Part shown: piece after piece, positions 74 to 8,392 of the stretch
How the letters are laid out: each line of letters opens with the position of its first letter
How positions within the stretch are numbered: the stretch's first letter is position 1
DNA from: a virus
Lineage: Duplodnaviria > Heunggongvirae > Uroviricota > Caudoviricetes
Strand: one strand, 5' to 3'
Length of the DNA: 9,385 bases
Virus record (IMG/VR): IMGVR_UViG_2690316099_000013
Program-made: the position numbers and the translations under genes
Notes under the pieces: model-generated
Seen by the model: the letters and a program-made list of their open reading frames with translations, nothing else
Databases searched by the model: none
Told to the model about the DNA's origin: nothing

Positions 74-628
74 GTGATCGTAAATATGATATATCCGGAA
101 ATTACAGGCAAAAGCGGCGAGCATTTACGTCTAAAAACGCTGGAAGCCGTCTGGATCCAGGGGAAATTACGGATGTGGGGGCGTTGGTCGTATATAGGTG
201 GTGGCAAACCAGGAAATATGTTCAATCAGTTGCTGGCATCCAAAAAACTGACAAAAACCGCGGTCAATGAAGCCCTGCGTAGAATCAGGGAGTCAGGGAT
301 TGATAAACCAGAGCTGGAAGCATTCTTGCGAGAGATGATCGCTGGCAGACAGAAGAGCTGGTTGTCTCACTGTACTGATGCAGAGGCGTTACGCATTGAT
401 GGGGTGATAAGTAAAGCGCTTGCACGTTATCCTGGATTGATTGATATCCTGCGGCAAAGGTACGAAGGGCGGGGGATGAGTAAACGCAAAATGGCTGAAT
501 TGTTGAATGAGGTGCACCCGGAATGGTGTTTTAGTACATGCGAAAAGCGAATTGCTAATTGGTTGGCTGTTGCTGAATATGCGCTATACATCCCTATGCG
601 AGAATCGTTTGCTCAAAAAATGTCTTGA
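74..628 (+). CDS. Putative late-gene antiterminator (Q-like), assigned by position rather than recognised sequence
   Basis: Complete 184-aa ORF (GTG 74; alternative ATG 86; stop TGA 626-628), bounded upstream by an in-frame TGA at 71-73. It is the last ORF before a promoter-like element and a strong intrinsic terminator at 713-737, which is the Q / PR' / tR' arrangement of lambdoid phages. I do not recognise the protein as lambda Q and see no classical CxxC...CxxC zinc motif. Confidence 0.5.
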   Translation: MIVNMIYPEITGKSGEHLRLKTLEAVWIQGKLRMWGRWSYIGGGKPGNMFNQLLASKKLTKTAVNEALRRIRESGIDKPELEAFLREMIAGRQKSWLSHCTDAEALRIDGVISKALARYPGLIDILRQRYEGRGMSKRKMAELLNEVHPEWCFSTCEKRIANWLAVAEYALYIPMRESFAQKMS

Positions 629-2306: not shown

Positions 2307-2382
2307 GGCCCTTTAGCTCAGTGGTGAGAGCGAGCGACTCATAATCGCCAGGTCGCTGGTTCAAATCCAGCAAGGGCCACCA
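2307..2382 (+). tRNA. ileZ: tRNA-Ile2 (anticodon CAU, presumably lysidine-modified; reads AUA)
   Basis: 76-nt cloverleaf: acceptor GGCCCTT/AAGGGCC, D-arm GCTC..GAGC, anticodon loop CTCATAA, T-loop GGTTCAAATCC, 3' CCA encoded. Closely resembles E. coli ileX-type tRNA as I recall it. Symbol is by analogy with the ileZ-argN-argO triplet of Stx phages. Confidence 0.85.
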
Positions 2383-2389
2383 TCACATA

Positions 2390-2466
2390 CCGCCATTAAC
2401 TCATCAGGATAGAGCGCCAGCCTTCGAAGCTGGTTGCGCGGGGTTCGAGTCCTCGATGGCGGTCCA
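2390..2466 (+). tRNA. argN: tRNA-Arg (anticodon UCG; reads CGA/CGG)
   Basis: 77-nt cloverleaf: acceptor CCGCCAT/ATGGCGG, anticodon stem CCAGC/GCTGG with loop CTTCGAA (anticodon TCG), T-arm CGGGG-TTCGAGT-CCTCG, discriminator T, CCA encoded. The unusual 5' C and a 3-bp D-stem lower confidence slightly. Confidence 0.75.
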
Positions 2467-2479
2467 TTATCTGTACCCT

Positions 2480-2556
2480 GCGTTGTTAGCTCAGCCGGAC
2501 AGAGCAATTGCCTTCTAAGCAATCGGTCACTGGTTCGAATCCAGTACAACGCGCCA
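2480..2556 (+). tRNA. argO: tRNA-Arg (anticodon UCU; reads AGA/AGG)
   Basis: 77-nt cloverleaf: acceptor GCGTTGT/ACAACGC, D-arm GCTC-AGCCGGACA-GAGC, anticodon stem ATTGC/GCAAT with loop CTTCTAA (anticodon TCT), T-arm ACTGG-TTCGAAT-CCAGT, discriminator G, CCA encoded. An N-gap follows 3 nt downstream. Confidence 0.85.
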
Positions 2557-2715
2557 CGCNNNNNNNNNNNNNNNNNNNNNNNNNNNNNNNNNNNNNNNNN
2601 NNNNNNNNNNNNNNNNNNNNNNNNNNNNNNNNAGAGCCTTATACTGAAATATACCTGGCTCAGGATATTGTTGAAAATATTTTATGTTTGTCAAAAATAA
2701 AAGTTCTGTTAAGTA

Positions 2716-3069
2716 TTGATTGAGTGTTTGTTATACGGTCTAATGGTTTTTTCAGCATTAAATATTTATCATTCATATGGTGTGGGTAGAGTGAATATTG
2801 ATGAGGCGTCGGGGTGTTTCATCCTTAGGCAGCGTATTGATATAGTCAATGCAGCACGAGCAAAGGCCTTCAGCCGTTTGACAGTTTTGTTCTGTACTCC
2901 TGATCGTCTTTCGGGAAGAGACGTTATTATTCTGAATAGTGATGCTATACAGAGGGTTTGCGATGAGTTCATGGTTGCTAATTCAGAATTATTTGCTCTT
3001 GTTCAGGAGTACAACAGAATAGCCAGGACCTGTGGTATGGATGAACTTCGGATTACTCATCTGGGGTAG
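2716..3069 (+). CDS. Orphan hypothetical protein in the stx-equivalent cargo slot; start uncertain (ATG 2716 or 2743, GTG 2782 or 2791)
   Basis: Open frame ending TAG 3067-3069 with an AT-rich leader at 2633-2790. From the GTG at 2791, 10 of 93 codons are AGG, AGA, AUA, CGA or CGG, the codons decoded by the three adjacent tRNAs. I recognise no family. No convincing Shine-Dalgarno precedes any candidate start. Confidence 0.4.
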   Translation: MIECLLYGLMVFSALNIYHSYGVGRVNIDEASGCFILRQRIDIVNAARAKAFSRLTVLFCTPDRLSGRDVIILNSDAIQRVCDEFMVANSELFALVQEYNRIARTCGMDELRITHLG

Positions 3070-3149
3070 ATACATATCTGGATTATCACCTGTTACGGTA
3101 AAAAGTGATTGCTTACTGTTTTTGTGAATGGCATTGCAGCAGCCGGATA

Positions 3150-3236
3150 ATGTCAGTGCTGGCTGACGGTGTGCTGGTGGCGGGTGTGGTGGTTGTTGCT
3201 TTCCCGTTGCTGAAAAAGAAAACGCCAGACTGTTAG
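3150..3236 (+). CDS. Small hydrophobic peptide (28 aa, MSVLADGVLVAGVVVVAFPLLKKKTPDC); paralogue of the 3' part of the 3797-3949 gene
   Basis: ATG 3150, TAG 3234-3236. The first 11 codons are identical in protein to codons 26-36 of the downstream gene and differ only at synonymous third positions. DNA upstream (3098-3149) resembles the 5' part of the downstream gene but carries an in-frame stop, so this may be a decayed copy expressed from an internal ATG, or a remnant. Confidence 0.35.
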   Translation: MSVLADGVLVAGVVVVAFPLLKKKTPDC

Positions 3237-3374
3237 CCGGGTATCAGTTAGCGGGAGAAATTTTTAAATACTTCACAATTCAGGCGGTTGACTGTTGNNN
3301 NNNNNNNNGTGTGACTTTCTCTGTGGGCTGGTCACCCCCGGGCGCAGGCTCACCCACTAAAAGGAAAAGTCACG

Positions 3375-3800
3375 ATGTTTGGTATTTTCAAAAAGAAAAC
3401 CCGCAAGGCCATTACCGAGGTGAAGAAGATGGAGAACCGTGACGCAGTGGAGGCGACCGTCTGGGGCGCGTACTCCATTGCATACGCTGACGGCACCTGT
3501 GACGCGAAAGAAATCGCGGTACTGGAAAAAACCATTGCAGCACTTCCTGTCTTTGCGCCGTTCTCCGGTGAGATTGCACAAATGAGTGCAAATATCCGCG
3601 CCCGTTATGAAGCGTCGCCGCGTTCTGCCAATGCCGAAGCTCTTCGTCAGCTGGCTGATGTTGCCGGTACTGATGATGCAGTTAATGTGCTGTGCCTGTG
3701 TCTGGATATCGCTGACCAGGACGGTATCGCTCAGGAAGAAGAAGCGCAACTGAAGAAAATTGCGCAGGCGCTGCAGTTGCCGCTGGAGCAGTACCTGTGA
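3375..3800 (+). CDS. TerB-like domain protein (tellurite-resistance TerB / DjlA-N-like fold)
   Basis: 141-aa ORF, ATG 3375 preceded by AAGGA; stop TGA 3798-3800. It contains two segments with the TerB signature pattern (AYADGTCDAKEIAVLEKTIAAL and DIADQDGIAQEEEAQLKKIAQALQL), compared against the plasmid TerB sequence from memory. Codon usage is ordinary for E. coli, with no AGA, AGG or AUA. Confidence 0.6.
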   Translation: MFGIFKKKTRKAITEVKKMENRDAVEATVWGAYSIAYADGTCDAKEIAVLEKTIAALPVFAPFSGEIAQMSANIRARYEASPRSANAEALRQLADVAGTDDAVNVLCLCLDIADQDGIAQEEEAQLKKIAQALQLPLEQYL

Positions 3801-3949
3801 AAAGTGCGCGCCTTGTGCTGGCTGTCATCCTGTTGTTTCTGGTAGTGGTGGTTGATTTCACCGGACGACTGATGTCGGTGCTGGCAGATGGTGTGCTGGT
3901 GGCGATGGCGCTGGTCGTGCTCCGGCCTTTACTGCGTAAATCTGAATAA
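3797..3949 (+). CDS. Small two-TM membrane protein (50 aa, MKSARLVLAVILLFLVVVVDFTGRLMSVLADGVLVAMALVVLRPLLRKSE), translationally coupled to the TerB-like gene
   Basis: GTG 3797 overlaps the TerB-like stop (GTGA, 3797-3800). Alternative starts are GTG 3815 or ATG 3872. Two hydrophobic helices and a basic C-terminal tail. Stop TAA 3947-3949. Confidence 0.45.
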   Translation: MKSARLVLAVILLFLVVVVDFTGRLMSVLADGVLVAMALVVLRPLLRKSE

Positions 3950-3958
3950 CATCACACA

Positions 3959-3995
3959 AAAGGCATCTGCGGATGCCTTTGACGGGGTGTTTTTT
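3959..3995 (+). terminator. Candidate hairpin / weak terminator between the cargo module and the lysis cassette
   Basis: 9-bp stem AAAGGCATC (3959-3967) / GATGCCTTT (3972-3980) with loop TGCG, followed by a T6 run at 3990-3995 after a 9-nt spacer. A second T-rich tract lies at 4014-4024. Non-canonical spacing, so this is tentative. Confidence 0.3.
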
Positions 3996-4035
3996 ACGGG
4001 TCGCTGGTGGCCCTTTTTTATTTTCAGGAGGAAGT

Positions 4036-4428
4036 ATGTCTGAACCCTTATCCGGTTCCGGCACGGCTGCGGCGCTGGGGGGCGCGACGGTATTCGGGCT
4101 GTTTACCGGGATGGATTTCGGGATTGTGTTTGGCGCGTTCGCCGGGGCGTTATTTGTGGCAACGATGCCGCAGTCACTTTCAGTCTGGCGCGTGGTGGCG
4201 CATTTTCTGGTGTCGTTTATTGTCGGCGTGCTGGGAGCGCGTGTGCTGTCAGCCTGGATTGCATCAAAAACAGGGTATGACGGTACATCAGCAGATGCGC
4301 TTTGCGCGGTGCTGGTCTCGGTGGTGTCGGTGAAGATTCTCTCGTTCATCCACCAGCAGGATATTGCATCGCTGGTGTCCGGTGTGTTCTCCCGCCTGCG
4401 GGGTGGAGGAGGCGGCAATGTTAAGTAA
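4036..4428 (+). CDS. Holin-like multi-TM membrane protein (130 aa), first gene of the lysis cassette
   Basis: ATG 4036 with a strong Shine-Dalgarno AGGAGG at 4026-4031. It has 3-4 predicted hydrophobic helices, Gly-rich segments and a charged C-terminus (RLRGGGGGNVK), and sits directly upstream of the endolysin. Call is by topology and synteny, not recognised homology. The ORF-track start at 3973 includes the terminator region and is rejected. Confidence 0.55.
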   Translation: MSEPLSGSGTAAALGGATVFGLFTGMDFGIVFGAFAGALFVATMPQSLSVWRVVAHFLVSFIVGVLGARVLSAWIASKTGYDGTSADALCAVLVSVVSVKILSFIHQQDIASLVSGVFSRLRGGGGGNVK

Positions 4429-4693
4429 CCTTCCCGGATTGCTGAATGTGGCGTTATGCACGGTTATCGTGCTGACGCTCTTTTTTTATCGTCGCCGTGA
4501 TTCCAGACATAAACCGCTGGTGTCATGGCTGGCCTGGCTGCTGATGCTGCTGTATGCCTTTGCGCCCCTCAGCTATCTGTGTGGTCGCCCGTTAGCAACG
4601 GGCTGGCTGGAAGTGTTTTTTAACCTGCTGTTCTGCGTGCTGGTGATACGCGCACGCGGGAACGTCACAAAAATCTTTCCATTGTTGAGGTGA
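4418..4693 (+). CDS. Second small membrane protein of the lysis cassette (91 aa; holin or antiholin-like, 2-3 TM)
   Basis: ATG 4418 preceded by GGAGGAGG at 4405-4412 with a 5-nt spacer. It overlaps the upstream gene by 11 nt, and its stop TGA 4691-4693 abuts the endolysin start. Hydrophobic helices LLNVALCTVIVLTLFFY, LVSWLAWLLMLLYAFAPL and WLEVFFNLLFCVLVI. Confidence 0.5.
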   Translation: MLSNLPGLLNVALCTVIVLTLFFYRRRDSRHKPLVSWLAWLLMLLYAFAPLSYLCGRPLATGWLEVFFNLLFCVLVIRARGNVTKIFPLLR

Positions 4694-7852: not shown

Positions 7853-8392
7853 ATGGAAGTCAACAAAAAGCAGCTGGCTGACATTTTCGGTGCGAGTATC
7901 CGTACCATTCAGAACTGGCAGGAACAGGGAATGCCCGTTCTGCGAGGCGGTGGCAAGGGTAATGAGGTGCTTTATGACTCTGCCGCCGTCATAAAATGGT
8001 ATGCCGAAAGGGATGCTGAAATTGAGAACGAAAAGCTGCGCCGGGAAGTTGAAGAACTGCGGCAGGCCAGCGAGACAGATCTCCAGCCAGGGACTATTGA
8101 GTACGAACGCCATCGACTTACGCGTGCGCAGGCCGACGCACAGGANAATGCCAGAGACTCCGCTGAAGTGGTGGAAACCGCATTCTGTACTTTCGTGCTG
8201 TCGCGGATCGCAGGTGAAATTGCCAGTATTCTCGACGGGATCCCCCTGTCGGTGCAGCGGCGTTTTCCGGAACTGGAAAACCGACATGTTGATTTCCTGA
8301 AACGGGATATCATCAAAGCCATGAACAAAGCAGCCGCGCTGGATGAACTGATACCGGGGTTGCTGAGTGAATATATCGAACAGTCAGGTTAA
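7853..8392 (+). CDS. nu1: Terminase small subunit gpNu1
   Basis: ATG 7853, TAA 8390-8392. The translation [74 protein letters not shown]...[14 protein letters not shown] matches lambda Nu1 almost residue for residue from memory. An N at 8146 coincides with an apparent in-frame loss of about 2 codons. Confidence 0.95.

Follow-up and report, generated by a model that had tools for sequence, protein, structure and literature searches.

The analysed DNA, a 9,385-nt stretch from a tailed virus (Caudoviricetes; IMG/VR record IMGVR_UViG_2690316099_000013), is called the window here. Gene assignments from Pfam, PHROGs and Rfam identified it as the late region of a lambdoid, E. coli-type prophage (Table 1). 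Two adjacent genes, tciA and tciB, were flanked by a Q-like antiterminator, a methylase and tRNA genes on one side and by holin and endolysin genes on the other. The three tRNAs were the only Rfam matches found in the window. No ORF of the window scanned against Pfam matched TerC or TerD, and no TerC, TerD, TerZ, TerA or TerE gene stood beside tciA. The locus differs in this from the ter operon (terZABCDE), in which terC and terD-family genes adjoin terB.

Table 1. Positions of genes and sequence signals in the window
Feature	Position	Strand	Remarks
Q-like antiterminator	74-628		DUF1133 and Phage_antitermQ
DNA methylase	1208-2257
Three tRNA genes	2307-2556		Rfam
Gene without assigned role	2716-3069		phrog_2873
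43-aa DUF3927 ORF, apparent tciB relic	3105-3236	+	Pfam DUF3927, 95.6 bits
Second Chi octamer, GCTGGTGG	3173-3180		In the tciB relic
Shine-Dalgarno-like AGGA for tciA	3362-3365	+	9 nt 5' of ATG
tciA, 141-aa cytoplasmic TerB-family protein	3375-3800	+	ATG start
Shine-Dalgarno-like GGAG for tciB	3785-3788	+	Within the 3' end of tciA, 8 nt 5' of GTG
tciB, small membrane protein of 50 aa, two hydrophobic segments	3797-3949	+	GTG start, DUF3927
Chi octamer, GCTGGTGG	3895-3902	+	In conserved V-L-V codons of tciB
9-bp G+C-rich hairpin, AAAGGCATC-tgcg-GATGCCTTT	3959-3980	+	Just 3' of tciB
Terminator-like stem (3998-4013) and T run	3998-4023	+	Pattern scan; follows tciB and precedes the holin start (4036)
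Phage_holin_8 gene	4036-4428		Pfam
Phage_holin_3_7 gene	4364-4693		Pfam
M15 endolysin	from 4690
Nu1 small terminase	7853-8392

The product of the first gene was compared with protein families and structures. TciA matched Pfam TerB (PF05099) with 33 bits at a cut-off of 24.4 (E = 8.3e-8) and matched phrog_632 ('tellurite resistance') from end to end (1e-63). When 10 diverse relatives of TciA were combined into a profile, it matched the TerB chain 2JXU_A with E = 3.5e-19, residues 13-138 being aligned to residues 19-145 of 153, and matched 2OU3 more weakly. The entry 2JXU is the NMR structure of TerB from Klebsiella pneumoniae. The AlphaFold model of TciA, computed from 28 sequences, reached a pLDDT of 87.5 and a pTM of 0.83; six helices followed about 10 disordered N-terminal residues, and the model matched all-alpha TerB-type folds. 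TciA is a full-length, all-helical TerB homologue. TciA and the ter-operon protein share family and fold along almost their entire length (141 aa in TciA, 153 aa in 2JXU). However, this similarity was visible with profiles only and not with BLAST or phmmer: the single TciA sequence searched with phmmer against PDB sequences gave chance matches to PNPase only. In the NCBIfam search, the tciA-tciB pair had nothing above cut-off and a weak similarity to DjlA only (E = 0.017).

Two acidic motifs of the form ADG...E (D39-G40...E46 and D116-G117...E122) were invariant or nearly so across the relatives of TciA. These motifs and the hydrophobic-basic N-terminus MFGIFKKK were kept in relatives at 25-40% identity. 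Paired A-D-G...E acidic motifs of TerB domains have been proposed as metal-binding in published TerB domain analyses.

TciB scored 54.2 bits against Pfam DUF3927 (PF13064; cut-off 25) and 3e-23 against phrog_1470 ('TciB-like'). DUF3927 was its sole Pfam match at E ≤ 1, with no TerC (PF03741) and no holin family. By hydropathy, residues 6-19 formed an uncharged, strongly hydrophobic run, and residues 25-42 formed a hydrophobic segment with one Asp (D31) embedded. Both ends of the protein are basic (K2 and R5; R43, R47 and K48), so both termini would be cytoplasmic under the positive-inside rule. The turn was placed at TGR (22-24) by hydropathy and at a helix break at D31-G32 by a low-confidence AlphaFold model. 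The DUF3927 family had 143 representatives among 1.84 billion representative proteins, nearly all shorter than 90 aa, and the exhaustive profile search of this set gave no large membrane protein such as TerC. TciB as a fragment or miniature of TerC was rejected on the basis of that search and of the sole DUF3927 match. Three longer 'DUF3927' proteins (P0253, P0297 and P0276) were chimeric or frameshifted ORFs and not domain fusions. In P0016 and P0045, the apparent TciA-TciB fusion seems to result from a frameshift at the junction and not to be genuine; over the TciB part of P0016, the AlphaFold model had low confidence (pLDDT 53-73).

The original prediction, made from the letters of the window alone, had described a TerB-like protein of 141 aa followed by a membrane protein of 50 aa with two hydrophobic helices. 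The first part was borne out by the Pfam score, the profile match to 2JXU and the modelled fold, and the second in outline by hydropathy and the DUF3927 match. It had also likened the pair to TerB and its membrane partner TerC. As a functional comparison this stood, since a membrane-protein partner, TerC, is reported or implied for ter-operon TerB as well. As a relationship it did not, because TciB, with its 50 aa and two hydrophobic segments, has no detectable similarity to TerC.

The two genes overlap in the tetranucleotide GTGA (3797-3800), in which the GTG start of tciB (3797-3799) shares two letters with the TGA stop of tciA (3798-3800). Both ORFs and this overlap, as first described, were confirmed in the sequence and in the ORF list. 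The start at 3797 was backed by the aligned N-termini of homologues, some of which have ATG at the equivalent position (MVIKARL... in P1 and MGKLRCL... in the L061 type). The same GTGA overlap was found in at least 66 of 86 closely related loci. In more distant phages, the junction was an overlap of 1, 4, 8 or 17 nt or a gap of 2-9 nt, with one of 92 nt. The tight, conserved overlap and the Shine-Dalgarno-like site belonging to tciB fit the translational coupling that had been predicted. TciA and TciB would then be made together from one mRNA at a fixed ratio.

A scan of positions 3250-3374 (10 nt masked) gave no sigma-70-like promoter directly upstream of tciA. Because no promoter-like site was found there, an autonomous promoter-gene-terminator unit was dropped as the main model. 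Downstream of tciB, the RNA fold of 3945-4010 had a free energy of -21.9 kcal/mol (z = -2.85). The role of the hairpin just 3' of tciB as a terminator is uncertain because a T run does not directly follow it. The terminator-like stem closer to the holin gene does carry a T run, and a Q-antiterminated late transcript would be expected to read through this site. The location in a lambdoid late region, together with the empty promoter scan, agrees with the earlier description of the pair as late-expressed cargo.

Two holin genes come immediately after the pair, and for this reason a role as a lysis-timing accessory, either antiholin-like or as a holin modulator, was considered. Only 87 nt separate the end of tciB from the Phage_holin_8 gene, which is followed by Phage_holin_3_7 and the M15 endolysin, and related prophages show the same gene order. 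Furthermore, TciB resembles small class II holins and antiholins in its size and its two hydrophobic segments. However, the two downstream ORFs, and not TciB, matched holin families in Pfam, and the position serves lambdoid phages as a cargo site in general. An esterase gene of 1.8 kb lies between the pair and the holin in JLK-2012 and PPyecE. In P1 and P7, the pair is located in the ban operon, far from the lysis genes, and in Pollock, Zuri and Erwinia, Pantoea and Vibrio phages it has an early or replication-gene setting. A function in lysis timing is therefore very unlikely.

The pair is practically certain to be the tciA-tciB accessory module first named, together with tciC, in phage P1 (Lobocka et al. 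2004, J Bacteriol 186:7032; GenBank AF234172). TciA showed 85.1% identity to P1 TciA across 141 residues, and TciB showed 48% identity to P1 TciB. As in the window, P1 has a DUF3927 TciB directly 3' of tciA with touching or overlapping stop and start, and tRNA genes are adjacent. Two differences were observed. P1 carries tciC (35 aa, one TM), for which tblastn found no counterpart in the window or in close viral loci; the spacer between tciB and the holin gene has a hairpin where P1 has tciC. In addition, the P1 genes lie between tRNA genes in the C1-controlled (C1-repressed) ban operon, whereas the pair in the window lies in a Q-dependent late region beside lysis genes. According to GenBank AF234172, the function of P1 tciA, tciB and tciC was assigned 'by homology', and the tci name includes 'inhibition of cell division'. 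All three tci genes were non-essential for P1 in a genome-wide CRISPRi screen (PMC10695390). No functional test of TciA or TciB was found in the literature searched, in which papers repeat the homology-based label.

The view of the original prediction that this was not a described system does not hold, because the tciA-tciB pair is already named in P1, in PHROGs (phrog_632 and phrog_1470) and in RefSeq, where it is labelled 'tellurite resistance TerB family protein' and 'DUF3927 family protein'. The clade was present at a coverage of at least 80% in 159 of 5426 complete E. coli genomes. TciA homologues were also found on 804 plasmids, mostly non-mobilizable and about 90-115 kb long, which is the size of P1-like phage-plasmids. 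Among the plasmid matches listed by tblastn with TciA, none was a ter-operon terB; TciA is therefore too distant from plasmid ter-operon TerB for this search.

The lambdoid relatives JLK-2012 and PPyecE_EH1910 have the pair after Q and tRNA genes, with the same gene order and overlap as in the window. PPyecE_EH1910 shares an identical stretch of 92 nt with the window, made up of 66 nt upstream of tciA and its first 26 nt. However, the TciA proteins of both relatives are only 41-43% identical to that of the window and belong to another type.

The association between the two genes was counted in three sets of loci. Besides the window, the close set of 86 loci contained 80 viral contigs that are close relatives and 5 loci from reference phages, and an intact small ORF lay directly 3' of the TerB-like gene in every one of them. 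The species set comprised 22 loci from different bacterial (Enterobacterales) species; one ends at a contig edge, and a DUF3927 ORF was directly downstream in all 21 informative loci. The distant set of 81 loci was made up of 80 distant viral loci and L107, a re-examined locus that also belongs to the species set. A small membrane partner followed the TerB-like gene in 78 of these 81 loci. The partner was of the DUF3927 family in 69, a different conserved one-TM protein in 6 (Pseudomonas Zuri/AF type) and another small hydrophobic ORF in 3. The remaining 3 loci had a TerB-like gene without a small partner, so TciA can exist alone.

The pair was present in P1, P7, lambdoid phages, N4-like podoviruses, Erwinia jumbo phages and Pantoea and Pseudomonas phages. 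Its virulent carriers include N4-like phages such as Pollock (PMC4319500) as well as jumbo phages. The pairing was annotated in Erwinia jumbo phage Caitlin, Pantoea LIET2 and P7; in Pseudomonas phiK7B1, it was found by HMM, the downstream ORF being annotated merely as hypothetical. The order of a TerB-like gene followed by a small membrane protein gene is kept across very different temperate and virulent phages. The co-occurrence counts, together with the exchange of partners in Pseudomonas phages, strengthen the initial idea of a TerB protein with a small membrane partner.

In phage AF, the Zuri/AF-type partner carries no annotation. In a Vibrio N4-like phage, TerB, TerC and TerB genes were consecutive instead.

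Selection on both genes was analysed from substitution patterns. In tciA, the pN/pS ratio was 0.076, and 104 of 134 variable sites fell at third codon positions, which indicates strong purifying selection. Among 33 close variants of tciB, pN/pS was 0.45 in the annotated frame compared to 0.72 and 1.09 in the other two frames; selection on tciB between close relatives thus appears only moderate. Between distant phages, tciB showed pS of 0.49-0.78 and pN of 0.29-0.48, a far greater divergence at synonymous sites. The codon patterns show both genes to be under purifying selection. The alignment with P1 TciB had S27, L29, D31, G32, L34, V35 and P44 as invariant residues, and a motif of D20-F-T, S27-x-L-x-D31-G-x-L-V and W/R43-P44 persisted between distant phages.

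These data bear on the reading of the 50-aa ORF as a chance overlapping frame, for which its shortness, its GTG start and the moderate selection among close relatives could be cited. However, an ORF bearing the motif was found in essentially every locus examined, including those with TciA only 30-40% identical, and the annotated frame had the lowest pN/pS of the three. Moreover, pS exceeded pN between distant phages, and a curated Pfam family was matched above its cut-off. The comparative sequence data contradict the chance frame, which we regard as extremely unlikely. Both checks that could have refuted the original prediction came out in its favour, since TciA has TerB similarity and the small ORF is kept as a coding frame.

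The types of TciA and TciB were shuffled between phages. The window and P1 shared 85% identity in TciA and 48% in TciB, whereas the window and JLK-2012 shared 41% in TciA and 60% in TciB. This shuffling argues against a tightly co-evolving interface. The near-universal coupling of the TerB-like gene to a small membrane protein and the swapping of the partner, both read from comparative sequence analysis, appear to be the new findings here. No paper reporting either was found, and the usual wording in papers on phage genomes is 'a single TerB gene'.

The homology to TerB suggests a lysogenic-conversion cassette, in which a lysogen would express tciAB and so withstand tellurite, pore-forming colicins or phages, in the manner of TerB within terZABCDE. 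The TerB homology of TciA is genuine, and the literature associates ter operons with resistance to tellurite, to phages (Phi) and to colicins (PacB). The pair also occupies a cargo ('moron') site with a hairpin and a terminator-like site after it. Such a role has also been suggested in reviews of P1-like elements (PMC11652158). However, the region directly upstream of tciA gave no sigma-70-like promoter in the scan described above, and the P1 genes lie in an operon repressed by C1. Lysogenic conversion cannot apply in the strictly virulent phages that keep the pair. Furthermore, TerC, TerD and TerZ are missing here, and TerC-TerD has been reported as the minimal tellurite-resistance unit (PMC12054061). 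The authors describing phage PMBT3 doubt that tellurite resistance arises from a lone phage TerB, and the distance of TciA from plasmid ter-operon TerB among the listed tblastn matches also speaks against this reading. A lysogenic-conversion role is improbable for these reasons.

In another reading, TciB would be toxin-like, for example by perturbing the membrane as a peptide or by inhibiting cell division or a host membrane protein, and TciA would restrain or time it. Coupling would keep TciB low relative to TciA. TciB is short and hydrophobic, and its GTG start is weak and relies on translation of the gene before it. Its conserved charged residues D20 and D31 lie within or beside the hydrophobic segments. 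The TerB-like gene persists where its partner has been exchanged, and the P1 name refers to inhibition of cell division. Relics lacking TerB keep the second segment only, which would fit selection against lone TciB; decay explains this equally well. However, TciB matched no holin or known toxin family in Pfam, NCBIfam or PADLOC, and some phages have TciA without a small partner. Knock-down of P1 tciA by CRISPRi, which should lower or uncouple tciB too, was without a phenotype (PMC10695390). On balance, a toxin with its regulator is unlikely.

An anti-defence decoy was also considered, in which the phage copy of TerB would compete with host TerB systems such as ter Phi and Shango and disarm them. 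TerB domains do occur in these anti-phage systems (for Shango, PMC10250203), and the gene is present in virulent phages. However, neither TciA and TciB nor the relic and the upstream ORF had a match (E ≤ 1) in PADLOC-DB 2.0, which includes the TerB-containing Shango. Ter operons are, as far as is known, missing from the majority of E. coli hosts, which also counts against a decoy, and the conserved membrane partner would be left unexplained. The decoy is thus quite unlikely.

We rather favour the reading that TciA and TciB act together as a membrane-associated pair. TciB may serve as an inner-membrane site for TciA, by analogy with the role reported for TerC toward TerB. A TerB-TerC complex in ter systems has been attributed to Turkovicova et al. 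2016, as that work is cited in PMC12054061 and PMC11003894. The conserved N-terminus MFGIFKKK of TciA could help membrane retention, and the acidic motifs may bind a divalent cation, as proposed for other TerB domains. However, the cytoplasmic tails of TciB are about 5 and 8 residues long and therefore offer little surface for docking, which speaks against anchoring.

Use in the lytic phase is suggested because the pair occurs in virulent N4-like phages and in the C1-repressed operon of P1, and because no promoter-like site was found here. The complex may change or protect the inner-membrane or ion physiology of the infected cell during lytic growth. Possible effects would be the exclusion of DNA from superinfecting phages or a shield against pore-forming colicins or membrane-depolarising abortive infection. 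In this proposal, tciAB would be helpful to the phage and not essential. HK97 gp15 and T4 Imm are small phage-encoded inner-membrane exclusion proteins carried as non-essential cargo. They may be functional analogues of TciB and differ in having no paired TerB-like protein. Taken as a whole, a membrane-associated TerB module acting at the inner membrane during lytic growth is the best explanation, with roughly an even chance of being correct; the specific physiological role outlined here is tentative.

A broader reading, which is possible but doubtful, is that TciA and its small partner form a self-contained two-protein membrane system that has one specific lytic role and is shared between phages of both lifestyles, temperate and virulent, in Enterobacterales, Pseudomonas and relatives. 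As the partner, most phages have DUF3927 and the Zuri/AF-type Pseudomonas phages have an unrelated one-TM protein. Candidate roles would be guarding the membrane potential against abortive-infection or colicin-type pores and excluding superinfecting phages. If true, this would give a first simple handle on TerB-domain biochemistry. TerB domains are widespread in ter operons, in DjlA and in some anti-phage systems, and tciA-tciB is the smallest natural TerB setting with a dedicated membrane partner. The module is dispensable in laboratory phage growth yet kept by very different phages, strictly lytic ones included. Therefore, tciAB is a convenient two-gene system for the action of TerB at the membrane.

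Upstream of tciA, the 43-aa DUF3927 ORF (3105-3236) is, judged by its similarity, what remains of the 3' part of a second tciB, one of the JLK-2012 type. It retains the second hydrophobic segment only. Positions 3137-3297 of the window were 92% identical to the 3' half of JLK-2012 tciB and its flank, with the breakpoint in the conserved core. Other E. coli prophages likewise have relics of 38-43 aa that lack TerB and follow the Q-tRNA region. Both the relic and the intact tciB contain a Chi octamer (Table 1), and the octamer was kept in 24 of the 39 unique DNA variants that encode V-L-V at that site of tciB.

Among complete E. coli genomes, none carries 2600-4050 of the window as a continuous stretch. 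Sequence up to 3297 (left part) and sequence from 3309 on (right part) are found in separate prophages, and therefore a mosaic joint lies in the window at about 3298-3308, just upstream of tciA. The first 92 nt on the right side (3309-3400) displayed 100% identity to phages in which the rest of tciA belongs to another type. On the left side, the block of the 117-aa gene and the second-type tciB relic is carried at 99% identity by many E. coli genomes. The 43-aa relic retains the second hydrophobic segment as its only one. TerB-less DUF3927 relics similar to that of the window were also observed in other prophages, where they are located after the Q-tRNA region (a Q-like antiterminator with tRNA genes).

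The Chi octamer GCTGGTGG occurs seven times in the 9.4 kb window; shuffled sequences contain 0.26 copies on average and 2 at most. The same V-L-V codons of both DUF3927 copies each contain one Chi. Among related loci, Chi was kept in 24 of the 39 unique DNA variants encoding V-L-V at this site, despite variation at the neighboring synonymous sites. Furthermore, mosaic breakpoints in tciB coincide with the V-L-V Chi site. The Chi site in tciB may act as a recombination hot spot, or it may provide protection from RecBCD.

Location of features in the window and in the compared loci (L-numbers)
Feature	Locus	Position	Strand
tRNA genes beside tciAB	window	2307-2556	
tRNA genes beside tciAB	L003, L004, L086, L087, L091		
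117-aa gene of unknown role (phrog_2873), then 43-aa second-type tciB relic	window	2716-3236	
Chi octamer GCTGGTGG	window	769, 1085, 3173, 3895, 4003	+
Chi octamer GCTGGTGG	window	1900, 4350	-
Two unlike holin-family genes in tandem: Phage_holin_8 (130 aa), Phage_holin_3_7 (109 aa)	window	4036-4693	
Alternative partner ORF	L088 (Pseudomonas phage AF)	~1930-2150	
Alternative partner ORF	L092 (phage Zuri)	1943-2146	

The two holin ORFs overlap by about 65 nt in the ORF listing, and an M15 peptidase endolysin gene lies downstream of them. The DNA of this E. coli-type late region is 94% identical to that of "Actinobacillus phage vB_Apl-pPE4" (L001, PP818812.1); the genes for Hok/Gef, the tciAB pair, the two holins, and the endolysin are among those shared. 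The deposited host of this phage is Actinobacillus pleuropneumoniae, an assignment that looks doubtful.

Phage tRNA genes adjoin tciAB in unrelated phages: the phage of the window, P1, P7, JLK-2012, Erwinia phage Caitlin, and Pseudomonas phage phiK7B1.

In the Pseudomonas phages AF and Zuri and those of loci L117-L122, another conserved protein, 63-74 aa long, is encoded after the TerB-like gene. This alternative partner has a single TM segment and is marked by the motif C-x-x-YG-x-QT-x-R-x-T-x-YA-x-FVGC; it gave no Pfam match and is without annotation in the phage AF record. In the N4-like Vibrio phage PhiImVa-1 (L089, 1-1926), three consecutive genes encode TerB, TerC, and again TerB; the second TerB gene is followed by an 84-aa non-hydrophobic ORF that is not DUF3927.
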